Source of the DNA: a virus
Taxonomy: Duplodnaviria > Heunggongvirae > Uroviricota > Caudoviricetes
Strand: one strand, 5' to 3'
IMG/VR virus record: IMGVR_UViG_2609460354_000010
Location: 1 to 11,476 of that record
DNA: 11,476 bases
This document shows, in pieces, positions 1 to 11,476 of the stretch. Numbering within the stretch: position 1 is the first letter of the stretch; the number at the start of each line of letters is the position of its first letter. Under the pieces are notes generated by a model. The model was not told the DNA's origin. It searched no databases and saw nothing but the letters and a program-made list of their open reading frames with translations. Made by a program: the position numbers and the translations under genes.

Positions 1-21
1 ATGGCGCTCATAAATCTGGTA

Positions 22-27
22 TACTTA
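22..27 (+). promoter_or_regulatory. Candidate -10 hexamer (TATACT) of the ssrA promoter
   Basis: TATACT lies about 13 nt upstream of the mature tmRNA 5' end (G40), consistent with a short processed leader. The -35 would be outside the window. Confidence 0.3.
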
Positions 28-39
28 CCTTTACACATT

Positions 40-402
40 GGGGCTGATTCTGGATTCGACGGGATTTGCGAAACCCAAGGTGCATGCCGAGGGGCGGTTG
101 GCCTCGTAAAAAGCCGCAAAAAATAGTCGCAAACGACGAAAACTACGCTTTAGCAGCTTAATAACCTGCTTAGAGCCCTCTCTCCCTAGCCTCCGCTCTT
201 AGGACGGGGATCAAGAGAGGTCAAACCCAAAAGAGATCGCGTGGAAGCCCTGCCTGGGGTTGAAGCGTTAAAACTTAATCAGGCTAGTTTGTTAGTGGCG
301 TGTCCGTCCGCAGCTGGCAAGCGAATGTAAAGACTGACTAAGCATGTAGTACCGAGGATGTAGGAATTTCGGACGCGGGTTCAACTCCCGCCAGCTCCAC
401 CA
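40..402 (+). ncRNA. ssrA: tmRNA (transfer-messenger RNA, SsrA), 363 nt, E. coli type
   Basis: Begins GGGGCTGATTCTGGATTCGACGGG and ends GGTTCAACTCCCGCCAGCTCCACCA (tRNA-like acceptor/T-arm and CCA), matching E. coli tmRNA as I recall it. It contains the internal tag reading frame. Confidence 0.96.
129..161 (+). other. tmRNA tag-peptide reading frame (resume codon GCA; encodes ANDENYALAA, stop TAA)
   Basis: GCA AAC GAC GAA AAC TAC GCT TTA GCA GCT TAA read directly from the sequence; this is the canonical enterobacterial degradation tag. Confidence 0.9.
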
Positions 403-435
403 CTTGCTCTTCCGGATACGTCCGGAGAAATCCTG

Positions 436-470
436 AAAGCCCGCATGGCACAAGCTTTGCGGGCTTTTTT
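436..470 (+). terminator. Rho-independent terminator downstream of ssrA
   Basis: AAAGCCCGCA (436-445) pairs with TGCGGGCTTT (458-467) around a 12-nt loop, followed by a T-run (465-470). Confidence 0.6.
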
Positions 471-515
471 GTGTCTACCGTTGTCCGAGGATATCCAGCT
501 AAATCCAGTGATTAT

Positions 516-566
516 TGGTATACGTTTAGGTATACGGTAGGATATATACCTAAACGCGTATACCAA
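516..566. repeat. Imperfect palindrome (TTGGTATACGTTTAGGTATA / TATACCTAAACGCGTATACCAA) upstream of int; candidate Int arm-type or operator site
   Basis: The two arms are reverse complements except for a 2-nt insertion (CG). They end about 20 bp upstream of the int start and overlap where an int promoter would lie. Confidence 0.45.
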
Positions 567-586
567 TTCATGAAGGAGCGGCCAAA

Positions 587-1783
587 GTGGCAAGAACGAC
601 ACGCCCCCTGACCAACACAGAAGTTCTGCGCGCTAAAGCGTTAGAAAAGGATCTAACGTTGCATGATGGCGATGGTCTTTTTCTGCTCGTTAAAACGAAC
701 GGTAAGAAGTTATGGCGTTTCCGTTATCAACGTCCAGCAACAAAACAGCGAACAATGATGGGGCTAGGTGCCTTCCCCACCCTTTCACTTGCTGACGCCC
801 GACGGTTAAGAGCGAATTACCTTTCCTTGTTAGCCAACGGAATTGACCCGCAAATTCAAGCTGAAATTGCAGTGGAACAGCAGCAAATCGCACTGGACAG
901 TATTTTTTCAACCGTCGCCGCTAACTGGTTCCAGCTTAAAAGCAAAAGCGTTACCCCTGATTACGCAAAAGACATTTGGCGCTCACTGGAGAAAGATGTA
1001 TTTCCTGCCATTGGTGAGATTCCCGTTCAGCAAATCAAAGCCCGAGCATTGGTTGAAGCACTTGAGCCAATCAAAGCTCGTGGGGCACTCGAAACAGTTC
1101 GTCGTCTAGTGCAGCGTATTAACGAGATAATGATTTATGCAGTTAACACTGGTTTGATTGATGCTAACCCTGCATCTGGTGTTGGCATGGCTTTTGAGAG
1201 ACCTAAAAAGAAAAATATGCCGACTTTACGACCGGAAGAACTACCTAAGCTGATGCGCTCTTTGGTTATGTCAAACTTGTCTGTTCCGACGCGTTGTCTT
1301 ATTGAGTGGCAGCTCCTGACCCTTGTGCGCCCTTCCGAGGCTTCCGGTGCTCGGTGGGCAGAGATCGATCTCGATGCAAAGCTCTGGACTATTCCAGCCG
1401 TACGGATGAAAGCGAAGCGTGAGCACATTGTACCGCTATCTCCTCAGGCATTAGAGATTCTGGAAGTGATGAAGCCAATCAGTGCTCATCGTGAACATGT
1501 TTTTCCGAGCAGAAATGATCCCAAAAAACCGATGAACAGCCAAACTGCGAATGCTGCTTTGAAGAGAATTGGGTATGAAGGTAGGTTAGTAGCTCATGGG
1601 TTGCGTTCGATTGCGAGCACTTACCTGAATGAATCAGAATTTAATTCAGATATTATTGAGGCAGCATTGGCTCACGTCGATAAAGATGAAGTAAGACGAG
1701 CCTATAATCGTACAACTTACTTGGCGCAGCGAGTAGAATTAATGAATTTTTGGGGCTTAAAGATAAAGAGTGAGAAACTATAG
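587..1783 (+). CDS. int: Tyrosine recombinase / phage integrase (P4-type), 398 aa
   Basis: GTG start with AAGGAG 8 nt upstream. The C-terminal region has the HxxR box (HGLRS) and a candidate catalytic Tyr (AYNRTTY). It lies directly beside the tmRNA gene. The 3' end is AT-rich like the downstream cargo. Confidence 0.93.
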   Translation: MARTTRPLTNTEVLRAKALEKDLTLHDGDGLFLLVKTNGKKLWRFRYQRPATKQRTMMGLGAFPTLSLADARRLRANYLSLLANGIDPQIQAEIAVEQQQIALDSIFSTVAANWFQLKSKSVTPDYAKDIWRSLEKDVFPAIGEIPVQQIKARALVEALEPIKARGALETVRRLVQRINEIMIYAVNTGLIDANPASGVGMAFERPKKKNMPTLRPEELPKLMRSLVMSNLSVPTRCLIEWQLLTLVRPSEASGARWAEIDLDAKLWTIPAVRMKAKREHIVPLSPQALEILEVMKPISAHREHVFPSRNDPKKPMNSQTANAALKRIGYEGRLVAHGLRSIASTYLNESEFNSDIIEAALAHVDKDEVRRAYNRTTYLAQRVELMNFWGLKIKSEKL

Positions 1784-2959
1784 ATGAAATTTGAATCAAC
1801 ATCGTTAGTCAACATTATCACAGGTAATAATGGGTCAGGGAAAAGTTCGATATTAGCTGAAATTTCAAAGCAAGAATACGTTACAGGAAAAAATGTAATA
1901 TGCTTATCAAACACATCAACCAATAAATTCCCCAAAATAAAAAGCCATCGTTTTCACATTCTTAATCAGTCATCTAACACACTTACCAAAGCATTAAAAA
2001 AAGTTGTAGTAAGCAATAGTCACAATAAGATCGGGTCATCGCACGCACACATTTTCCCAAGAGTATTGGCGTATTTAGATTTCAATGAGCAACTCACATT
2101 TAAATTTACAATCTTCCCTTATGAAAGTTTCATTAGAAAATTTCAATCCGAGATGTACAACAATGAGTTAATCGGTAGTGATATCGATGAAATAACGAAT
2201 CACTTAAGAAATCTAATCGAAATAAACGATGACACTGCTAGCTCTACTGATCATGGAGTGAAAGGCTCTCACATACTTTATTTGGAGTATGCTTTCACAT
2301 ATGAATCAGAAAAAAGAATTAACACCATTCATAATCGCCTCATTGAACTAATGTTAAAGCATGAGCGCATTCTAAAAAAGAACCATTTAATACATGACAT
2401 TGAAATAACCTTAAGTCGTGGCCATAGTATAATACCATCATCTCATTTAAGCTCTGGTGAAGCGTGCTACATGGCAACACTTGCTTTTATCCTTACATAT
2501 ATATCGGATAACAGCGTAATAATAATTGATGAGCCAGAGAATAGTTTACATCCTCGTTGGCAAAAAAAATACACATCAAACCTTCTGGATCTATTATATT
2601 ATTTCGACATAAGAATAATATTAGCGACACATTCACCAATGATTGTTATAGGGGCGGTAGAAGACCATAGTGGCCTAAGTGTTTTCAAATCCGAAAATAG
2701 TACCCTTTCTCCCCTTGAAGGAAATGAAACTAATATTGATGAAGTAATGGTGGATGTGTTCGGTGTATTAACGTCAAGAAGCAGATATTTCAGCTACAAG
2801 ATAAATGAGATTCTTAATGAATACAACAATAAAAAAATAGATATAAATTCAGCACGCGACAAATTAAATAAAACAAAATCACTCGGGCCTGATGAAAGCC
2901 AAGTAAAAATAATTGAAGCAGCCAATGAAATATTAAATCAGATGGTGAAAAATGCCTAA
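1784..2959 (+). CDS. ABC-type (SMC/RecF-like, AAA15/AAA21-like) ATPase, 391 aa; PtuA-like candidate defense ATPase
   Basis: Walker A GNNGSGKSS (res 14-22, K20 codon 1841-1843), ABC signature-like LSSGE (222-226), Walker B IIIDEPE (246-252), H-loop LATHSP. The ATG follows the int TAG with no gap. The gene is AT-rich. Confidence 0.88.
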   Translation: MKFESTSLVNIITGNNGSGKSSILAEISKQEYVTGKNVICLSNTSTNKFPKIKSHRFHILNQSSNTLTKALKKVVVSNSHNKIGSSHAHIFPRVLAYLDFNEQLTFKFTIFPYESFIRKFQSEMYNNELIGSDIDEITNHLRNLIEINDDTASSTDHGVKGSHILYLEYAFTYESEKRINTIHNRLIELMLKHERILKKNHLIHDIEITLSRGHSIIPSSHLSSGEACYMATLAFILTYISDNSVIIIDEPENSLHPRWQKKYTSNLLDLLYYFDIRIILATHSPMIVIGAVEDHSGLSVFKSENSTLSPLEGNETNIDEVMVDVFGVLTSRSRYFSYKINEILNEYNNKKIDINSARDKLNKTKSLGPDESQVKIIEAANEILNQMVKNA

Positions 2960-3548
2960 CTTCACATTTACAGCAGAGAATATCTCTCATATCCGCACTG
3001 CTATATCCGAAAATAAACTCGATGACAAAGTAAAGGTGTGGGAGCACAAATTGCTTAAATCCATGAGAAGAGAACTCAAACAATATATTCTTTCCAACCG
3101 TAATGATGGTTTCAAATGTGCTTATTGCTTAAAGGATTTCCATAATGAACACAATATGAATATTGATGTTGAACACATTCTCCCCAAGTCACAATATCCA
3201 GAATATACGTTCACACTTAAAAATTTAGCGGTGGCCTGCAAGAGATGTAACCTATTAATAAAGAGAAATGATGTTTCATTTTTAAATGCTAACTTCATAA
3301 GAAAAAAACCGTTTAACTCAAAATATTATAAAATATTCCATCCTGTTATCGACAGAAAAAATCACTTATCTCTTCTGGATGTCCATTTTAATGGGTGCCA
3401 CATTATCAAGTATCAAACAAATAGTGAAAAAGCAAACAACACCTACATTTACTTCAAGTTAAATGAAGTTGAGATAGAAACATTAAACAACGCACAAGGA
3501 ATAGAACAGATAATTGATTTACTTCACACATACAACCCAAGAAATTAG
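2952..3548 (+). CDS. HNH-family endonuclease (HNN variant with CxxC...CxxC zinc-finger), 198 aa; PtuB-like candidate effector
   Basis: C56-x2-C59, catalytic-type His in DVEHILP (H75, codon 3174-3176), N91, C96-x2-C99-N. The start overlaps the ATPase stop by 8 nt (ATGCCTAA), indicating translational coupling. Confidence 0.88.
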   Translation: MPNFTFTAENISHIRTAISENKLDDKVKVWEHKLLKSMRRELKQYILSNRNDGFKCAYCLKDFHNEHNMNIDVEHILPKSQYPEYTFTLKNLAVACKRCNLLIKRNDVSFLNANFIRKKPFNSKYYKIFHPVIDRKNHLSLLDVHFNGCHIIKYQTNSEKANNTYIYFKLNEVEIETLNNAQGIEQIIDLLHTYNPRN

Positions 3549-3568
3549 AAACAAAACAATATCTAATT

Positions 3569-3587
3569 AGCCGCCACAAGGCGGCTT
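3569..3587. terminator. Hairpin between convergent genes (candidate bidirectional terminator)
   Basis: AGCCGCC-ACAA-GGCGGCT stem-loop flanked by AT-rich sequence, located between the HNH gene end (3548) and the minus-strand small gene end (3596). Confidence 0.5.
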
Positions 3588-3595
3588 CTACTCAA

Positions 3596-3820
3596 TTAGC
3601 CTTTGGATTTTTTTGGATCATCTTTCCGCTGATAAGTACGCTCTTCCTGAAATCGCCCGTCCTCTTTGTGGATTTTAACCGAGCCTGTTTTATCAGTCAT
3701 ATATTCTTGCATTTCTCTGACAATCTCATTTTTAGTCGTCGCCGTCTTACTTGGTCTTTCATTACCTTCTTTCTGAAGTTTCCATTTATCACCATCCTTA
3801 GTAATGTGATATTTATCCAT
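3596..3820 (-). CDS. DUF2188-like small protein (74 aa from the ATG at 3820; the ORF track gives a TTG-initiated 78-aa form)
   Basis: The motif pattern H-I-T-K-DGDKW-K-KEG...IHKEDGRFQEERTY resembles the DUF2188 family as I recall it. GGAGG lies 5-6 nt upstream of the internal ATG (MDKYH...), so the shorter start is favoured. Confidence 0.65.
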   Translation of the reverse strand: MDKYHITKDGDKWKLQKEGNERPSKTATTKNEIVREMQEYMTDKTGSVKIHKEDGRFQEERTYQRKDDPKKSKG

Positions 3821-4032
3821 TAGAACCTCCAAATGTAGTTAGACATATGAGATGACAGTAAAAATTTTATACGGAAAGAGGCACTAGATTTGTGCCATAA
3901 CTCTCATTCTGAAAATACGCCTCCGATAAACACAATAAATGACATTGGCAACTTATCGACGGTTGGTATTACTGCATCTACATATCGCATACCTGAGATC
4001 ATATTAATATTACGTTCAACCGCTAGCGCGCA

Positions 4033-4051
4033 ATGCTTTCCCCGCCTCGCC
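4033..4051 (-). other. cos site: P2/P4-type 19-nt cohesive end sequence (18/19 match)
   Basis: The minus strand reads GGCGAGGCGGGGAAAGCAT against the P2/P4 cohesive end GGCGAGGCGGGGAAAGCAC as I recall it. It sits between the cargo islet and psu, as expected for an integrated P4-like element. Confidence 0.75.
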
Positions 4052-4074
4052 CGCCCGCTTTGCGGGGCGGTTTT
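4051..4074 (+). terminator. GC-rich hairpin plus TTTT immediately next to cos
   Basis: CCGCCCGC-TTT-GCGGGGCGG followed by TTTT; it would stop plus-strand read-through from the cargo islet. Confidence 0.4.
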
Positions 4075-4153
4075 AATGCAGTTGCACTGACACGCTCAGA
4101 CCGCGCCGGGAATGGTGCGGTCTGCAGAAAATGAGGCAGGAAAACGCATGCAA

Positions 4154-4185
4154 AGCCATGCACCTTATCGATGCATGGCTTTTTT
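4154..4185. terminator. Hairpin with flanking T/A runs between cos and psu (candidate bidirectional terminator)
   Basis: AGCCATGCA (4154-4162) pairs with TGCATGGCT (4172-4180), followed by TTTTT on the plus strand; on the minus strand the hairpin is followed by TTTGCATGCGTTTT. The psu stop is at 4216. Confidence 0.5.
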
Positions 4186-4215
4186 CAGTAAAAACGGGCG
4201 GATTTTCGGGGAATT

Positions 4216-4788
4216 TTACACAGACTGACGTGATGCCAGTTGCGCACTTTTACGCGAAAAAATCATGTTCTGCGCAGGAGTGAATTTTTCACGGCTGTCA
4301 TCCACCGAAGCCGCGTCAGGCCTGAATCCGATGGCCGTTAAAATGTCGCTATCCTGTACGGAATAATTAATTTTTTCACCCTTCGCAAGCCAGGACAGAA
4401 GGGCTTCACGCAGGGCATCTGTGGCACGCTGTATGGCACAGTTTCGGGCAATGGCCGTCAGCTCACTGTAGCCCATCAGCTCCGGTGCCAGTGCCGCCGC
4501 CAGTGCTGTGCCGTGCTGCTGCATAAAATCATTCAGCCGGTCGCGGATGCTGATGTGCTGAACGGCTTCATGCGAACGAATATAACGACCGGCGGCCTGA
4601 TTCACCTGCCATTTTCTGACTTCGATAATATTGCGTAATTCGTCCAGGCGACTGACGTTTCTGCCTTCTCCTGACTGAAGCCGCAGATATTCCTGTTCGG
4701 CCGCTGCCAGCTCATTTTTGCGTTGCAGCCATGCTGCTTTGTTATTCTGACAGGTGTCAAAGGCCTGCTGTAAGGCTGTGCTTTCCAT
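4216..4788 (-). CDS. psu: Polarity suppression protein Psu (capsid decoration / Rho antagonist), 190 aa
   Basis: 190 aa, the same length as P4 Psu; the sequence (MESTALQQAFDTCQNNKAAWLQ...) matches P4 Psu as I recall it. It is the last gene of the sid-delta-psu operon. Confidence 0.92.
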   Translation of the reverse strand: MESTALQQAFDTCQNNKAAWLQRKNELAAAEQEYLRLQSGEGRNVSRLDELRNIIEVRKWQVNQAAGRYIRSHEAVQHISIRDRLNDFMQQHGTALAAALAPELMGYSELTAIARNCAIQRATDALREALLSWLAKGEKINYSVQDSDILTAIGFRPDAASVDDSREKFTPAQNMIFSRKSAQLASRQSV

Positions 4789-4861
4789 CGTTATCTCTTT
4801 CTCATCATGCTGAAGAATAAAAATACGGTGTGCGGCGACGGCCGGGGTTAACCGGCAGCCC

Positions 4862-5362
4862 TCATTCCAGACGCAGCGAATATGATTGTGTTTTTAACCG
4901 TACTGGCGGCAGTTCCTGTTTTTCATGCAGGCGTTCTGCCAGTTCGTCCGGTGTGACCGGGCGGACAATGAAGCGGTTGATGGTCTGAAGCGTTTTAAAC
5001 ACCAGACCACAGCCCGGATCCGTGCACACATAAAAACGTTCGGTGACTTCCTGAGACAGACGCCGCGATGTTCTTGACAGTGCAAGGCCTTTACATCTCC
5101 GACAACAATATCCGGTAACAAGCATTCTTTTCGGGCGTTTCATACTGCCGGAGGCAGAAGTCAGTGAATCGCGGTATCTCTGTTTGCCTGAAATGTATTC
5201 CATTCCTGAATCTTTACTGTCAGAGAAAAAGCTTTCACTCGCTTCAAATGTCGCAGAGCAATAAATATTCCGGCACTGTGCAATCATTATCTTGGTGCCA
5301 TCGTCCATGAAATGTGCGCGGCGGGTGTGAGCAACATGTCCACACGACGGGCAGTAAATCAT
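4862..5362 (-). CDS. delta: Delta late-gene transcriptional activator (Ogr-family zinc finger, duplicated), 166 aa
   Basis: Begins MIYCPSCGH...CRNIYCSATF (Ogr/Delta Cys4 motif) and a second Cys-rich repeat follows. 166 aa as in P4 Delta. The start overlaps the sid stop (ATGA). Confidence 0.92.
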   Translation of the reverse strand: MIYCPSCGHVAHTRRAHFMDDGTKIMIAQCRNIYCSATFEASESFFSDSKDSGMEYISGKQRYRDSLTSASGSMKRPKRMLVTGYCCRRCKGLALSRTSRRLSQEVTERFYVCTDPGCGLVFKTLQTINRFIVRPVTPDELAERLHEKQELPPVRLKTQSYSLRLE

Positions 5363-6093
5363 GACAGCAGTCCTCTGGCCTTAAGCTCTGCTCCCTGCTG
5401 GTCTATTTTGTCCTGCCACACCTTGCGCTGTGCCGGTGTGCCTGCCACCTCATAATCCATGTGCGGAAGTGTTGCCGCTGACAGTCCGGTCAGCCGGAGA
5501 ACCGGCTCGCCGGTGAGGCTGATTTGCATCTGTTTAATTTTCTGTTCCAGCGATGATTTCACCTGCTGCATGACAGCCTTTTCCGGTGCGACGTAGCCCT
5601 GATGGCCGGTGGCGTTGGCGAGCGGATTTTCCTGTACCAGAATGCTCAGATGCATTGCCCGGACAAGCGCCTCACAGGTTTCATTCAGGGCGTGTTCCAG
5701 CTCATGCTCTGCATACAGGCTCAGCAGGTGATGGTGTGCCTTCCGGTAGGCGGTGGCCGTGCTGTCACACGCCCCTTTCAGGCGTTCGCGTTCAAAATTC
5801 AGCACCACGGCCAGATTGTCATATTCCTGTACCAGCTCCCGGCGTGCCACGCGCTCAATGTGGCGCTGTTTCAGCTCGTCGCTCAGGACACCACCGGCTG
5901 CACGAAAGGCCGTGCGCCAGTCGTCAGCGTCGTTTCCGTCGGCCTGCGCCAGCGCATTTTTTTCCTGCTCTGCCCGTTCAATGGCCGTGACGGTCTCATC
6001 CATCAGGCGGGCGTTCTCAAGATGAGCGGCTCTGGCCTTTTCCAGTTGTGCCAGCGCGGGTTGCAGATATTCAGGGATGGTGTTGTCAGACAT
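5359..6093 (-). CDS. sid: Sid capsid size-determination (external scaffold) protein, 244 aa from the ATG at 6093
   Basis: The ORF track starts at a GTG (6111), but GAGGAG lies 7 nt upstream of the internal ATG (MSDNTIPEY...), giving 244 aa as in P4 Sid. The protein is coiled-coil rich. Confidence 0.9.
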   Translation of the reverse strand: MSDNTIPEYLQPALAQLEKARAAHLENARLMDETVTAIERAEQEKNALAQADGNDADDWRTAFRAAGGVLSDELKQRHIERVARRELVQEYDNLAVVLNFERERLKGACDSTATAYRKAHHHLLSLYAEHELEHALNETCEALVRAMHLSILVQENPLANATGHQGYVAPEKAVMQQVKSSLEQKIKQMQISLTGEPVLRLTGLSAATLPHMDYEVAGTPAQRKVWQDKIDQQGAELKARGLLS

Positions 6094-6127
6094 TTTCCGG
6101 CTCCTCGTCACTTCAGGTTAAGAAAAT

Positions 6128-6183
6128 TGTGACGTACACCGGACAACAACACGACGCATTGCAGATGTGCCAGCCCTGACACA
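6128..6183 (-). promoter_or_regulatory. Psid-like late promoter with two TGT-N12-ACA activator (Delta/Ogr) sites
   Basis: TGTgacgtacaccggACA (6128-6145) and TGTgccagccctgacACA (6166-6183), centres 38 bp apart. Placing them at about -18 and -55 predicts a minus-strand start near 6119, 26 nt upstream of the sid ATG. Confidence 0.6.
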
Positions 6184-6262
6184 GGAGACTCATCCTCAGA
6201 CCGGCAAGCCAGGAAAAGGTCGCAGGAAAAACCGGCTTACTGTTTGTTTTTTTATATTTTAC

Positions 6263-6366
6263 TGTTCACCTCTGTTCACCATAAGAAAAAAGATAAGTAA
6301 TACAGTAAGTTAAAGGGTGAACAATCGCAGTAATGACTGTTCACCGTCTGTTCACCACTGTTCACC
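6263..6366. repeat. Iteron cluster: six copies of TGTTCACC (five direct, one inverted); crr/ori-type alpha-binding repeats
   Basis: Copies at 6263-6270, 6273-6280, 6317-6324 (inverted, GGTGAACA), 6338-6345, 6349-6356 and 6359-6366, spaced about 10-11 bp within clusters. TGTTCACC is the type I iteron bound by P4 alpha. An AT-rich tract follows (6370-6470). Confidence 0.75.
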
Positions 6367-6524
6367 CGTTGATGGGCTTTTTGTGCTGTTTATTACTTTT
6401 TATTTTTATTAATTCACTGAAATAAATAAGAAAAAACAATTTGTATTTCACTATAATTTTTTCCAGCTCCTTCCAGAGCGTTTTAAAGCTATCTGGCGCT
6501 GATGTACAAAAAATACACAGCCAT

Positions 6525-6542
6525 TGTAAGGCTGCCGGAACA
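6525..6542 (+). promoter_or_regulatory. Candidate PLL-like late promoter activator site (TGT-N12-ACA) upstream of vis
   Basis: TGTaaggctgccggaACA, with a degenerate second site (TGC-N12-CAA, 6561-6578) 36 bp downstream. Predicted plus-strand start is near 6588; the vis ATG is at 6645. Confidence 0.4.
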
Positions 6543-6644
6543 AATCCCCCCTGTTGCGTCTGCCGAAAATATTCACAAAATAAAGCGCTACCCGAAGCCG
6601 GACGGACTTATCCGGTGCTGTATGGACATTAACGAGGTAGCCCG

Positions 6645-6911
6645 ATGCAAGCTGTTTTTTCTTCCCCGTCTCCCGCCCCTGTGACGCCACTGATGCCGCT
6701 GCCGGACATCACGCAGGAGCGTTTTTTACGTCTGCCGGAAGTGATGCACCTGTGCGGCCTGTCACGCTCGACCATCTACGAACTCATCCGTAAGGGGGAA
6801 TTTCCGCCGCAGGTGAGTCTTGGCGGTAAAAATGTGGCCTGGCTGCACTCTGAAGTCACCGCATGGATGGCCGGGCGCATTGCCGGACGCAAACGGGGGT
6901 ACGACGCGTGA
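6645..6911 (+). CDS. vis: AlpA/Vis-family HTH regulator (excisionase-like), 88 aa
   Basis: HTH core [42 protein letters not shown] is typical of the AlpA/Vis family. GAGG lies 7 nt upstream of the ATG. Its position between the late promoter and the immunity region matches P4 vis. Confidence 0.8.
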
Positions 6912-6946
6912 TGATACCCGTCCTGCAAAAACTCCCTTTTTCTGGC

Positions 6947-6976
6947 TTGCCTTTTTCCGGCATTTGCGGATATAGT
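6947..6976 (+). promoter_or_regulatory. Candidate sigma70 promoter (PLE-like): -35 TTGCCT, 18-bp spacer, -10 TATAGT
   Basis: Hexamers read from the sequence; located between vis and the immunity leader. Only a motif match, not verified. Confidence 0.3.
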
Positions 6977-7002
6977 TTTTCCGCTGCCGCAAAATCGGCA
7001 GC

Positions 7003-7288
7003 CGGGCGTGAGAACCCGAGCAATTCACAGGCGACATATGACGCGCCACGCGTCTTTTTTTGTGTCGCAATCAATGCCACAGAGCGCCAGATTATGGTGT
7101 GGTGTGTGGTCAGTCGTGCAGATGGCATTCCGTGCATCCTGCCCGCGTCCGCTCATTATGCCGCAGAGTCAATGGTAGCTCAGGCGGGGCAGCCTCCGGG
7201 CTGGCCGGTATCCTGTGAAGCCGGTATTCTCACCCCCGTCTGGGCTATCGCCATCGAGCGTGAGAACTCCGGCGATAGCGTTATTTGC
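7003..7288 (+). ncRNA. Candidate P4-type RNA-immunity leader region (seqA/seqB/seqC-like elements and terminator hairpins); exact RNA ends unknown
   Basis: Direct repeat GCGTGAGAAC at 7006-7015 and 7258-7267. A segment at 7220-7233 (GCCGGTATTCTCAC) is complementary to both in 12 of 14 positions. Hairpin plus T7 at 7040-7061 (GACGCG-CCA-CGCGTC-TTTTTTT). Hairpin GCTATCGCC/GGCGATAGC (7244-7279) followed by TTATTT. No convincing coding frame across 6912-7309. Confidence 0.3.
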
Positions 7289-7309
7289 TATTCACAGGAG
7301 GCTGCCATC

Positions 7310-7507
7310 ATGGCTACAACCCTTACCCCCTCACACCCTGAATTTGTCTTTGTGTTTGCGGCTGTCCGTCGCACAGACCGTCATCCCCGTATCTGTATGC
7401 TTCGCACCGTCGCCGGTGATGAACGCAGCGCCCGCCGTTCCCTTGTCCGTGACTATGTGCTCTCCCTTGCTGCCCGTCTGCCGGTGGTGGAGGTGTCCCG
7501 TGCGTAA
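7310..7507 (+). CDS. kil: Small protein, 65 aa; Kil-like by position and size
   Basis: AGGAGG lies 8 nt upstream of the ATG and third-position codon bias is strong. It is the first gene after the immunity leader. The name is assigned from P4 synteny and size only. Confidence 0.6.
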
Positions 7508-7787
7508 TAAAAAAGCCCCTCAGACCGTCTCAGCGCGTCATGACGCCCGTGAACACCTCAGCATTGAGGCTTACCATAAGCTCAACCGCGCCAGCGCCGT
7601 ATCCCAGTTTGTTGGGGGTGATTTGATTCACCGTGAACTCTCCGGCCTGCATCAGCTCTACATTCCGCATATTTTCAGTTACCTGAATGAAGATATTGAT
7701 TTTGTGCTGAATGAGCTGAAAGCCAAAGGCCTGTGCCGCGATTTTCTCGCCCAGCAGAAAGACCGGGGAGACAGGACGCATGTTTGA
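7500..7787 (+). CDS. epsilon: Small protein, 95 aa (GTG start); epsilon-like (antirepressor) by position
   Basis: GTG start 6 nt after GGTGGAGG, overlapping the kil stop; coding-like codon usage. The ORF track's longer 190-aa version has a low-complexity N-terminus that overlaps kil and the leader. The name is by synteny only. Confidence 0.55.
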
Positions 7788-8235
7788 TTTTCCCCAGCCC
7801 GGTGAGATTTACCGTTCTGCCGGTTTTCCCGATGTGGCCGTGGTCGGCATTCTGGAAGACGGTATTCCGTGGGAAATGCCGTACCGCTGCCCGGACATTG
7901 TCTGGAACCCGTACCGCCGTAAATTCAGTATCCTTGTGCGTATCCTCGCTGACGGACGCACCACAGACATCCCGCTGGGGCGTTTTCTGCGGGAATTTAC
8001 CTGTGACCGTCCTGACCTGTTTAAACGCAGCCCCGTAAACCGGCATGCGGTACTGAAAGAAATGGCCGGAGACCCGGAATTACAGAAATGGCGGGAAAAA
8101 TATCTGGATATTTACCCGCAGGCCCCTGTTCCGGTCAGCCGGGCGGCACCGGTGGCGCGGGAATGGCGGGAAATTCCCCGCACGGAGCCTGACCCGGAAA
8201 TCACCCCGGATAACAGTTACCGCAATTATCTGTAA
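7780..8235 (+). CDS. Conserved hypothetical protein, 151 aa (P4 orf151-like)
   Basis: The ATG overlaps the upstream stop (ATGTTTGA), indicating translational coupling. Size and position match P4 orf151 as I recall it. Confidence 0.7.
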   Translation: MFDFPQPGEIYRSAGFPDVAVVGILEDGIPWEMPYRCPDIVWNPYRRKFSILVRILADGRTTDIPLGRFLREFTCDRPDLFKRSPVNRHAVLKEMAGDPELQKWREKYLDIYPQAPVPVSRAAPVAREWREIPRTEPDPEITPDNSYRNYL

Positions 8236-8370
8236 TTAAAAAACGACACCCGAAAAATTAAATGTGCGTATTCGCGCAGGGATACGCACGTCTTCAGGAG
8301 ACGCAGATATGCCTTATCAGTTAATGCAACCGGCACGGAATGCAGTCATCTGTCACAGGGAGGAAAGCAA

Positions 8371-8691
8371 ATGAAAACCCCCTTACCGCCCGTCTTACGC
8401 GCAGCCCTTTACCGTCGCGCTGTCGCCTGTGCCTGGCTGACCGTGTGCGAACGTCAGCACCGCTACCCGCATCTCACCCTTGAATCACTGGAGGCGGCCA
8501 TCGCCGCTGAGCTGGAAGGCTTTTATCTGCGCCAGCACGGTGAGGAAAAAGGGCGTCAGATAGCCTGTGCCCTGCTGGAAGATTTAATGGAATCCGGCCC
8601 CCTGAAGGCCGCGCCGTCGCTGTCCTTTCTCGGGCTGGTTGTGATGGATGAACTCTGTGCCCGTCACATAAAAGCGCCGGTACTGCACTGA
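8371..8691 (+). CDS. cnr: 106-aa protein immediately upstream of alpha; Cnr-like (copy number regulation)
   Basis: GGAGG-containing RBS before the ATG; 106 aa, directly preceding alpha as for P4 cnr (orf106) as I recall it. Confidence 0.65.
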
Positions 8692-8705
8692 AGGAGAACA
8701 ACACC

Positions 8706-11039
8706 ATGAAAATGAACGTAACCGCCACCGTCAGCCATGCACTCGGCCACTGGCCGCGTATTCTCCCGGCGCTGGGGATTCAGGTGCTGAAAAACCGTCA
8801 TCAGCCCTGTCCGGTCTGTGGCGGGAGTGACCGCTTCCGTTTTGATGACAGGGAGGGGCGCGGCACCTGGTACTGCAATCAGTGTGGTGCCGGTGACGGC
8901 CTGAAACTGGTTGAAAAGGTGTTTGGTGTTTCCCCGTCCGACGCGGCCACAAAGGTGGCTGCCGTGACCGGCAGTCTGCCCCCGGCTGACCCGGCAGTGA
9001 CGGCCGCCGCCGTTGCTGAAACAGAAGCCGCCCGGAAGAACGCCGCCGCACTGGCACAAACCCTGATGGCGAAAACCCGTCCCGGAACCGGTAACGCCTA
9101 CCTGACCCGCAAGGGCTTTCCCGGCCGGGAATGCCGGATGCTGACCGGCACACACAGAGCCGGTGGCGTGAGCTGGCGCGCCGGTGACCTTGTGGTGCCA
9201 CTGTATGACGACAGCGGCGAACTGGTTAACCTTCAGTTAATCAGTGCTGACGGCCGTAAGCGCACCCTGAAAGGCGGACAGGTCAGGGGCACCTGTCACA
9301 TCCTTGAAGGACAGAATCAGGCCGGAAAACGTCTGTGGATAGCGGAGGGATACGCGACCGCACTTACCGTACATCACCTGACCGGTGAAACGGTGATGGT
9401 GGCGCTTTCTTCCGTGAACCTCCTTTCTCTGGCCAGCCTTGCCCGGCAGAAGCATCCGGCCTGTCAGATTGTCCTTGCCGCAGACCGTGACCTCAGCGGT
9501 GACGGCCAGAAAAAAGCCGCCGCAGCCGCAGATGCGTGTGAGGGTGTTGTTGCCCTGCCGCCGGTCTTCGGTGACTGGAATGATGCCTTCACGCAGTACG
9601 GCGGGGAAGCCACCCGTAAGGCCATTTATGATGCCATCCGGCCACCGGCTGAAAGCCCGTTCGACACCATGAGCGAAGCGGAGTTTTCCGCCATGAGTAC
9701 CAGCGAAAAGGCCATGCGTATCTATGAGCATTACGGCGAGGCGCTCGCGGTCGATGCCAACGGCCAGCTTCTGTCCCGCTATGAAAATGGTGTCTGGAAG
9801 GTGCTGCCGCCACAGGACTTTGCCCGGGATGTGGCCGGGCTGTTTCAGCGGCTGCGTGCGCCGTTCTCCTCCGGGAAGGTGGCCTCCGTGGTGGACACCC
9901 TGAAGCTGATTATTCCGCAGCAGGAAGCCCCCTCCCGCCGCCTGATTGGCTTTCGTAACGGCGTGCTCGACACGCAGAACGGCACGTTCCACCCGCACAG
10001 TCCGTCACACTGGATGCGCACCCTGTGCGATGTGGATTTCACCCCGCCGGTGGAAGGGGAAACGCTGGAAACCCACGCCCCCGCGTTCTGGCGCTGGCTT
10101 GACCGTGCCGCCGGTGGCCGTGCGGAAAAACGCGACGTGATTCTGGCCGCACTGTTTATGGTGCTGGCAAACCGCTACGACTGGCAGCTCTTTCTGGAGG
10201 TGACCGGTCCCGGCGGCAGCGGCAAAAGTATCATGGCCGAAATAGCCACCCTGCTGGCCGGTGAGGATAACGCCACGTCGGCCACCATCGAGACGCTGGA
10301 ATCCCCGCGTGAACGTGCCGCGTTAACTGGCTTCTCACTGATACGCCTGCCGGACCAGGAAAAATGGAGCGGCGACGGAGCCGGACTCAAGGCCATCACC
10401 GGCGGCGATGCAGTGTCCGTTGACCCGAAATACCGGGATGCGTACTCCACGCACATCCCGGCGGTGATTCTGGCCGTGAACAATAACCCGATGCGCTTCA
10501 CCGACCGCAGCGGCGGCGTGTCACGCCGGCGGGTGATTATTCACTTCCCGGAACAGATAGCCCCGCAGGAGCGCGACCCGCAGCTTAAGGACAAAATCAC
10601 CCGCGAGCTGGCGGTCATCGTGCGTCACCTGATGCAGAAATTCAGCGACCCGATGCTCGCCCGGTCACTGCTTCAGTCCCAGCAAAACTCAGACGAGGCG
10701 CTGAACATCAAACGGGATGCCGACCCGACGTTTGATTTTATCGGCTATCTGGAAACCCTGCCGCAGACCAGCGGCATGTATATGGGGAACGCCAGTATCA
10801 TCCCGCGTAATTACCGTAAATACCTCTATCACGCCTATCTGGCCTACATGGAGGCAAACGGCTACCGGAATGTACTCAGTCTGAAAATGTTCGGGCTGGG
10901 GCTGCCGGTGATGCTGAAGGAATACGGACTGAATTACGAGAAGCGCCATACCAAACAGGGGATACAGACCAACCTGACGCTGAAAGAGGAAAGCTACGGC
11001 GACTGGCTGCGTATTACCGTGAAGGAGATCGGTGAGTAA
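8706..11039 (+). CDS. alpha: Alpha replication protein (primase-helicase with C-terminal origin-binding domain), 777 aa
   Basis: 777 aa, as for P4 alpha. N-terminal zinc-binding CPVCGG...CNQCGAG (primase zinc finger), Walker A GPGGSGKS (helicase), AAGGAG RBS. The TGTTCACC iterons it would bind are at 6263-6366. Confidence 0.95.
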   Translation: MKMNVTATVSHALGHWPRILPALGIQVLKNRHQPCPVCGGSDRFRFDDREGRGTWYCNQCGAGDGLKLVEKVFGVSPSDAATKVAAVTGSLPPADPAVTAAAVAETEAARKNAAALAQTLMAKTRPGTGNAYLTRKGFPGRECRMLTGTHRAGGVSWRAGDLVVPLYDDSGELVNLQLISADGRKRTLKGGQVRGTCHILEGQNQAGKRLWIAEGYATALTVHHLTGETVMVALSSVNLLSLASLARQKHPACQIVLAADRDLSGDGQKKAAAAADACEGVVALPPVFGDWNDAFTQYGGEATRKAIYDAIRPPAESPFDTMSEAEFSAMSTSEKAMRIYEHYGEALAVDANGQLLSRYENGVWKVLPPQDFARDVAGLFQRLRAPFSSGKVASVVDTLKLIIPQQEAPSRRLIGFRNGVLDTQNGTFHPHSPSHWMRTLCDVDFTPPVEGETLETHAPAFWRWLDRAAGGRAEKRDVILAALFMVLANRYDWQLFLEVTGPGGSGKSIMAEIATLLAGEDNATSATIETLESPRERAALTGFSLIRLPDQEKWSGDGAGLKAITGGDAVSVDPKYRDAYSTHIPAVILAVNNNPMRFTDRSGGVSRRRVIIHFPEQIAPQERDPQLKDKITRELAVIVRHLMQKFSDPMLARSLLQSQQNSDEALNIKRDADPTFDFIGYLETLPQTSGMYMGNASIIPRNYRKYLYHAYLAYMEANGYRNVLSLKMFGLGLPVMLKEYGLNYEKRHTKQGIQTNLTLKEESYGDWLRITVKEIGE

Positions 11040-11083
11040 CGGCGTTTTTCAAGGTAGTTGTCGCCTTTTGTAATAAAATTACG

Positions 11084-11476
11084 TTATGCAGCCTCTTTTT
11101 CTGGATTCAGGTAGACTTCTGATATGTAGTCCCAGTTACGTAGATGCTTTCCCCAACGTTCAGGATGCTGTTCGCGTGCCAGCTGGTATACTGCTTTTCT
11201 GGCCGCCAGTATTTTCATATCATTACCTTGATGACGCTCGGCTGGCGTGACGTATTTGATCCCGCTGTGCTTATGTTCAAAGTTGTACCAGTTTACAAAA
11301 CGGTTTACCCATATTCTGGCATCATTAATAGTGCGAAAACCGTTCTCAGGCCACCAGGGACAATATTTGAGAGTCCGGAACAAAGATTCTGAGTAAGGAT
11401 TATCATTGCTGACTCTTGGCCGGGAATAAGAACTTAGCACACCAAGCGCATACATTTTCGCCAACAACGTGTAACT
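11084..11476 (-). CDS. IS3-family DDE transposase (OrfB), C-terminal part; gene continues beyond the window edge
   Basis: DNPYSESLFRTLK resembles the IS3-family catalytic-Glu region, with a C-terminal ...YVTPAE... tail. The reading frame is open to the window end. GC content differs from the satellite backbone. Confidence 0.8.
   Translation of the reverse strand, partial: SYTLLAKMYALGVLSSYSRPRVSNDNPYSESLFRTLKYCPWWPENGFRTINDARIWVNRFVNWYNFEHKHSGIKYVTPAERHQGNDMKILAARKAVYQLAREQHPERWGKHLRNWDYISEVYLNPEKEAA

Follow-up and report, generated by a model that had tools for sequence, protein, structure and literature searches.

A probable compact type I Septu system in the int-cos cargo slot of an ssrA-integrated P4-like satellite

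What do two overlapping genes, placed directly behind the integrase gene of a P4-like satellite, do for the element that carries them? We addressed this question for ptuA and ptuB (together, ptuAB), which lie at positions 1784-3548 of the window, that is, the whole stretch of 11,476 nucleotides (nt) analysed here (IMG/VR record IMGVR_UViG_2609460354_000010, positions 1 to 11,476). An earlier reading, made from the letters alone and referred to below as the sequence-only reading, had seen in these genes an ABC-type ATPase and an HNH-family nuclease and had proposed a candidate anti-phage system with the layout of Septu (PtuA/PtuB). Our results make it very probable that ptuAB is a type I Septu anti-phage system of a compact subtype, which a P4-like satellite integrated at ssrA carries as cargo in its int-cos hotspot. 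The two genes and their junction are as follows.

1784-2959, plus strand: ptuA, 391 amino acids (aa), compact ABC/SMC-type ATPase, probable Septu type I
2952-3548, plus strand: ptuB, 198 aa, HNH nuclease, probable Septu type I (C56xxC59, H75, N91, C96xxC99, N100)
2952-2959, plus strand: overlap of the ptuA stop with the ptuB start, 8 nt, ATGCCTAA, read from the sequence

Both open reading frames (ORFs), the 8-nt overlap and every ATPase and nuclease motif that the sequence-only reading had named were located where it had placed them. In PtuA, the Walker A motif GNNGSGKSS spans residues 14-22 (with the K20 codon at 1841-1843), the signature motif LSSGE residues 222-226, the Walker B motif IIIDEPE residues 246-252 and the H-loop LATHSP residues 280-285; Walker A and the signature motif lie about 200 residues apart, in agreement with the earlier description of this ATPase as compact. 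PtuB has the C56xxC59 pair, H75 (codon 3174-3176), N91 and C96xxC99-N100. Among 46 PtuA homologues, residues G14, N16, G17, G19, K20, S21, S223-E226, D249, E250 and H283 are invariant, as are C56, C59, H75, N91, C96, C99 and N100 among 33 homologues of PtuB; because these motif residues do not vary, we consider both genes to be real and under selection. The HNN variant of the nuclease motif, which had been offered as a sign of divergence, is real but not distinctive: N100 is fixed across all 33 homologues, so that this variant is the norm of the PtuB family. The compact PtuA family is large, with 697 homologues at E<=1e-5 (far beyond chance) and lengths of approximately 365-400 aa. As in a type I Septu, ptuA and ptuB are two adjacent, co-oriented genes, and no third gene is obligatory. 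Homologues of 29-76% identity retain both the pair and its overlap, and in orthologues down to 48% PtuA identity the overlap reads ATGCCTAA, ATGCCTGA or ATGGCTAA. Such an overlap implies that translation of the two genes is coupled.

Profile searches, which had been suggested as a check on the sequence-only reading, gave the same answer for both proteins and bear out the Septu layout that it had recognised. PtuA matched PADLOC profile PDLC00303 at 537.4 bits (E 4.9e-162), with residues 1-391 aligned to positions 4-385 of 386, a full-length match to a curated Septu PtuA profile as expected of type I. The match of PtuB to PDLC00352, a profile of 206 positions, was likewise full-length (284.9 bits, E 8.2e-86). 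In Pfam, PtuA was recognised by AAA_21 (52.7 bits) and AAA_15 (32.6 bits), both over the cut-off, and its Walker A, signature, Walker B and H-loop motifs are all intact; PtuB was recognised by HNH (31.7 bits), and it has the catalytic histidine, the metal-binding asparagine and the zinc-binding CxxC pairs of such a nuclease. NCBIfam gave only sub-threshold matches for the pair (to retron PtuA, retron PtuB and a restriction-associated AAA ATPase) and was of no help in naming it. The PADLOC Septu profiles were built by clustering the proteins of loci that Doron et al. had listed as Septu in 2018; as the PtuA profile derived from those loci has 386 positions, the compact form was already part of the founding Septu set. 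Both profile lengths, 386 and 206, fit the compact proteins, and the pair in the window is a typical member of these clusters.

The same conclusion can be drawn from the published catalogue of satellite cargo. Rousset et al. (2022, Cell Host Microbe, PMC9122126) reported that P4-like satellites carry, in their psu-int hotspot, known systems that include Septu. Their Table S1A lists an arrangement of WP_032172939, WP_032172940 and WP_050427836, and their Table S1B prints both proteins of system 26, described as AAA_21 with HNH, counted 56 times and labelled "Septu (Doron et al., 2018)". PtuA and PtuB of the window are string-identical to proteins 1 and 2 of system 26; the slot and the RefSeq proteins are also the same, and there is no difference between the two at the sequence level. 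RefSeq annotates the corresponding satellite of strain WGS1363 (99.6% nt identity) with WP_032172939, WP_050427836 and WP_032172940. The exact ptuAB pair is a known and ordinary member of Septu, catalogued and named as such in 2022. Hence, the earlier suggestion of a divergent subtype or a distinct family finds no support, since the compact form has Septu profiles of its own in PADLOC and these very proteins are listed as Septu. With the label and the place in the P4 hotspot already published and the pair called at once by PADLOC, the locus carries little weight as a discovery.

Comparison with solved structures gives a picture of kinship at a distance. Single-sequence phmmer searches against the PDB returned matches only to the C-terminal ATPase part of PtuA and none with PtuB; searches with profiles and folds were therefore needed. 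With the PtuB profile, PtuB/TIGR02646 proteins came first among PDB sequences. AlphaFold models were built from the family alignments, with predicted local distance difference test (pLDDT) scores of 84.1 for PtuA and 84.7 for PtuB. In Foldseek searches against the PDB, the first 49 matches of the PtuA model were all PtuA chains (E 1.8e-8 to 2.6e-5), from the retrons Eco7, Ec78 and Ec83 and from E. coli Septu, while the first 5 matches of the PtuB model were PtuB chains (E 3e-3 to 4e-2). The folds are therefore akin to those of solved PtuA and PtuB, as in other type I Septu, with global TM-scores that are low.

A number of observations weigh against the assignment to Septu, or against extending to this pair what is known of other Septu systems. 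In the Foldseek alignments, identity to solved PtuA and PtuB was only 13-23% and TM-scores were only 0.24-0.41. The outcome that the sequence-only reading had named as its refutation, a match of both proteins to an already characterised Septu subtype at high identity, thus applies in spirit: the catalogued pair is identical, but the experimentally studied subtype is similar only at this low level. The best PDB sequence match of the PtuA profile was not a PtuA but AriA of the PARIS system (E 3.6e-19), and the compact PtuA profile aligned with the PtuA of 8ee4 through the Walker B region alone (E 8.5e-10). The arm from Walker A to the signature motif is shorter than in solved PtuAs. Neither the ptuAB sequences nor any HNH entry was found in the table of tested systems of Rousset et al. 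(PMC9122126); our reading of the literature brought up no experiment on the compact subtype, and WP_032172939 and WP_050427836 did not occur in the main texts searched. Finally, a scan of positions 1400-4300 found no sigma-70-like promoter on the plus strand upstream of ptuA; the scan is weak evidence and returned fewer promoter-like sites than shuffled sequence. Taken together with the profile, catalogue and fold matches, these points leave membership of the Septu family well supported and place the compact subtype remote from those studied biochemically.

The distance can be seen most readily in the E. coli Septu I systems (ATCC 25922, PDB 8EE4/8EE7/8EEA/8SUX; EcB88). These are likewise two-gene operons of an ATPase and an HNH nuclease, and their chains are among the nearest PDB folds of the window proteins. 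In the EcB88 Septu, the Walker A and Walker B motifs, H75 and N91 are essential for defence (PMC13096335), and the numbering of H75 and N91 equals that of the PtuB described here. However, the PtuA of the studied E. coli systems (ATCC 25922, EcB88 and the "Septu I" of Wu et al.) has 465 aa, with K43 and D316, compared with 391 aa, K20 and D249 in the window, and their PtuB has 243 aa compared with 198 aa.

Our second line of evidence concerns the place of the pair within the satellite, for which the following features were identified.

40-402, plus strand: ssrA (transfer-messenger RNA, tmRNA), the chromosomal attachment side (ARAGORN; Rfam RF00023, 295.8 bits)
587-1783, plus strand: int, P4-type tyrosine integrase (Pfam Arm-DNA-bind_3, Phage_int_M, Phage_integrase)
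1756-4025, no strand: variable cargo slot (defence hotspot); homology to the MDR_56 satellite stops at 1755 and resumes at 4026
4033-4051, minus strand: cos core (P2/P4 cohesive end), right boundary of the cargo slot; 18/19 match to GGCGAGGCGGGGAAAGCAC
4216-4788, minus strand: psu (polarity suppression), the first backbone gene past cos (Pfam Psu, E 3.7e-88)
4862-5362, minus strand: Ogr/Delta (Pfam)
8706-11039: alpha primase-helicase (Pfam)

The query used for cos, GGCGAGGCGGGGAAAGCAC, was taken as the P2 cos 19-mer; it matched at 4033-4051 with one mismatch and gave 0 matches in 200 shuffles. With int, cos and psu in place, ptuAB lies in the slot at 1756-4025, as the sequence-only reading had proposed when it placed the pair in the int-cos/psu hotspot where P4-like satellites carry anti-phage cargo. 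The contents of this slot differ between strains: the satellite of E. coli MDR_56 has a backbone 98.4% identical to that of the window and carries DUF262 and HEPN genes instead, and the cargo found on this backbone elsewhere is DUF262+HEPN, SIR2 or ABC-three-component. The gene sid was also identified in the backbone. The P4 immunity region is intact, with c4-a1b1 targets at 6970-7022, isrK at 6983-7060 and the C4 antisense RNA at 7168-7255 (plus strand; all above Rfam gathering scores), which speaks for a functional satellite and against a remnant. The int gene itself is more diverged from its MDR_56 counterpart (91.6% nt identity over 587-1755) than the remaining backbone.

The distribution of ptuAB is narrow within E. 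coli and deep beyond it. Of the 5,426 complete E. coli genomes, 10 have the pair with at least 99% identity, in every case on the chromosome, and 8 of these 10 genomes have the whole satellite. In strain S43 (NZ_CP010237.1, 7607-11360) the matching stretch covers only positions 389-4143 of the window (int, ptuAB, the DUF2188 gene described below and cos) at 99.97% identity, and the backbone from psu to alpha is missing; this remnant is a decayed satellite in a composite island. Its flanks hold a SIR2-family gene, an ankyrin-repeat gene, insertion sequence (IS) elements and a second truncated integrase. Orthologues of PtuA were found in Klebsiella quasipneumoniae (76% identity), in Serratia marcescens (70%) and in two more satellites (52% and 48%; all pairwise values). 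All four loci occupy the same slot of P4-like satellites, and three of them adjoin smpB. Between the E. coli and Klebsiella satellites, int and the cargo share 77-85% aa identity (int 85%), compared with approximately 60% for Psu and Sid, which hints that int and cargo may have been exchanged or inherited as one block. More distant homologues, in Scandinavium, Flavobacterium and Vibrio lentus, lie in small islands and keep an overlapping partner of 187-206 aa; the pair in Vibrio lentus is two genes away from an OLD-like ATPase-TOPRIM gene. In the phage collection no close relative was found, the best tblastn match being 28% identical and on an unannotated faecal phage contig; hence, as far as that collection goes, the pair is not of phage origin in the sense of a phage gene.

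The age of the cargo was one point on which the sequence-only reading was misled. The contrast between an AT-rich cargo and a GC-rich backbone is real (33.7% GC in the cargo, 46.4% in int and 56.2% in the backbone), but recent acquisition does not follow from it. In the four orthologous loci ptuAB has 29-33% GC, compared with 45-47% for int, and orthologues of 48-76% PtuA identity share both this low GC content and the slot; low GC is therefore a stable trait of the cargo and no sign of a recent arrival. A cargo that has stayed with one lineage of satellite integrases over deep divergence at approximately 31% GC is a caution against reading AT-richness as recent acquisition.

Other accounts of the pair differ in what they take the ATPase to be. 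That ptuAB could supply the effectors of a retron (type I-A, also termed Septu type II), or represent an AriA system like that of PARIS, is suggested by the fold searches, in which the PtuA chains of the retrons Eco7, Ec78 and Ec83 were the top matches of PtuA, by the weak NCBIfam matches to the PtuA and PtuB of retron Ec78 and by the position of AriA as best PDB sequence-profile match. Retrons of type I-A (Retron-Eco7/Ec78 and Retron-Eco4/Ec83) share the pairing of ATPase and HNH nuclease and gave the best Foldseek matches for both proteins, but their PtuAs have approximately 550 aa and are restrained by a reverse transcriptase (RT) with multicopy single-stranded DNA (RT-msDNA). No RT ORF was found in the slot, which contains only ptuA, ptuB and the DUF2188 gene; Rfam matched only tmRNA, C4, c4-a1b1 and isrK in the window; and the NCBIfam retron equivalogs scored far under their cut-offs (NF041760 for PtuA, 42.3 vs 500; NF041761 for PtuB, 28 vs 150). 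On these three grounds the retron effector was rejected. PARIS pairs the ATPase AriA with the Toprim nuclease AriB; it too has an ABC-type ATPase of the AAA_15/21 class and is a system of the P4 hotspot. The likeness to AriA is local, however, extending over about 80 residues around Walker B, the PADLOC AriA profiles score 51-60 bits or about ten times lower than the 537 bits for PtuA, and the partner here is HNH and not Toprim/DUF4435; PARIS was rejected for these reasons. We regard a retron or PARIS-like identity as very improbable. Weak, sub-threshold Pfam and NCBIfam similarity to the P-loops of SMC_N, RecF and Rad50 might also suggest that the pair is a RecF/RecN/SbcCD-like ATPase-nuclease with a housekeeping task in DNA repair, or a selfish homing HNH endonuclease, in either case with no relation to defence. 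Against this, only 10 of the 5,426 E. coli genomes have the pair. The examined homologues of at least 48% identity are all in satellite cargo slots and the more distant ones in small islands. The composition of ptuAB is foreign to the backbone, and its strong matches are to defence profiles only. Both readings were rejected, repair on distribution and genomic context, and we give them next to no probability.

Two further accounts accept the pair as PtuAB and differ over its role or its partners, and for the latter the gene next to ptuB has to be considered.

3596-3820, minus strand: DUF2188 gene, 74 aa (ATG start; a TTG-started ORF extends to 3832); Pfam DUF2188, E 2.5e-16; PADLOC PDC-S16, E 6.8e-12

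It is conceivable that ptuAB is mainly an addiction module, similar to a toxin-antitoxin pair, which stabilises the satellite and has secondary or no anti-phage activity. The PtuAB of Retron-Eco7 is toxic without its RT-msDNA inhibitor (PMC12640716), and ptuAB has remained linked to the integrase of the satellite through deep divergence. Yet the pair has no evident antitoxin-like component, standalone Septu cloned on a plasmid protects against phages and does not kill uninfected cells (PMC13096335; preprint 10.1101/2022.08.21.504612), and the int-cos slot is a documented anti-phage hotspot (PMC9122126). Addiction and defence are also compatible roles, and addiction as the main function seems to us quite unlikely. 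The DUF2188 gene, which is convergent with ptuAB and corresponds to WP_032172940 in RefSeq, raises the question of a three-gene module in which its product works with PtuAB (regulating it, serving as its antitoxin or acting as a sensor, for instance) instead of being an independent neighbour. The satellites of E. coli, Klebsiella (85% aa identity) and Serratia all have this gene next to ptuAB, as does the truncated S43 element, it matches the PADLOC defence candidate PDC-S16, and DUF2188 has been predicted to be linked to defence (preprint 10.1101/2022.04.27.489752, citing Burroughs and Aravind 2020). However, it is on the opposite strand, it was not found in the satellites with PtuA of 52% and 48% identity or in the Scandinavium, Flavobacterium and Vibrio loci, it occurs alongside unrelated genes in the P2 hotspot, and system 26 is defined by AAA_21 and HNH alone (PMC9122126). 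By gene content, DUF2188 is dispensable across the ptuAB family. A module of three genes is thus unlikely, and we treat DUF2188 as a separate candidate defence gene that does not belong to the defined components of Septu. In the satellite with the 52% PtuA (locus L013, 6871-8381, minus strand), DUF2188 is replaced by a protein of 297 aa with DUF4747 and by an unannotated one of 205 aa; these two genes might form a further cargo system next to Septu. Between DUF2188 and cos, the slot of the window has approximately 190 base pairs of AT-rich non-coding DNA (3833-4025), and a GC-rich hairpin with a T-tract follows directly past cos (4051-4070). RefSeq relatives have no annotation at either of these places.

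If ptuAB is a Septu system, its mode of action may resemble that of the PtuAB complexes studied so far. Activities reported for these (PMC12640716, PMC13096335) include nicking of plasmids by standalone Septu and cleavage of single-stranded DNA by Retron-Eco4, as well as cleavage of the tRNA-Tyr variable loop by Retron-Eco7 and the Septu of EcB88; mutants in Walker A/B or in H75/N91 lost defence (PMC13096335). In EcSeptu, PtuA and PtuB form a 6:2 complex in which binding of PtuB stabilises the C-terminal domain of PtuA, ATP inhibits the nuclease and substrates depend on context (PMC12640716). By analogy, the PtuA of the window would oligomerise and hold PtuB by its C-terminal helical domain, and the nuclease would be kept inactive while ATP is bound. 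Phage infection would then release or activate PtuB, which would cut nucleic acid. The outcome might be growth arrest or abortive infection, blocking the spread of the phage and protecting the lysogen, the satellite and possibly a P2-type helper. The AlphaFold model of PtuA has a C-terminal domain of three helices (residues 334-348, 354-365 and 371-390), and this domain could be the docking site of PtuB. As Walker A and the signature motif are joined by a shorter arm here than in solved PtuAs, the oligomeric state or the assembly could differ from theirs, and the trigger and substrate of studied Septu systems may not carry over to the compact subtype. As a clean and intact example of compact Septu, ptuAB could reveal the extent of the PtuA arm that assembly and nuclease control require.

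The junction between int and ptuA bears on how the pair is expressed. The stop codon of int directly abuts the start codon of ptuA (CTATAG followed by ATGAAA, with TAG and ATG at 1781-1786), and in the four related satellite loci (48-76% PtuA identity) int abuts or overlaps ptuA, with overlaps of 1-4 nt. This abutting stop and start, together with the lack of a promoter-like site on the plus strand upstream of ptuA, suggests that int, ptuA and ptuB may be transcribed together and translated as a unit; the promoter scan neither supports nor excludes an internal promoter. A wider reading would make compact Septu a long-term partner of the ssrA-type P4 integrase, with an int-ptuA-ptuB operon linking expression of defence and integrase, perhaps with a trigger or substrate of its own, unlike that of Septu systems with a 465-aa PtuA, and with DUF2188 as a modulator. 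We consider this unlikely; in its favour, all the satellites examined (48-100% PtuA identity) have the stop codon of int adjoining or overlapping the start of ptuA, and DUF2188 travels with the pair in the closer relatives.

The far end of the window differs from the corresponding region of other satellites. Likeness to all related satellites stops at 11010, and the alpha primase-helicase gene has its final 9 codons replaced, so that the protein ends in DWLRITVKEIGE before the stop instead of DWLPKCDDPATT as in relatives. Beyond this gene, an ORF of 127 aa (11084-11467, minus strand) resembles, by eye, the integrase core of an IS3-family transposase. The stretch at 11011-11476 points to a probable IS insertion or rearrangement at the right end of the satellite, and attR does not lie within the window.

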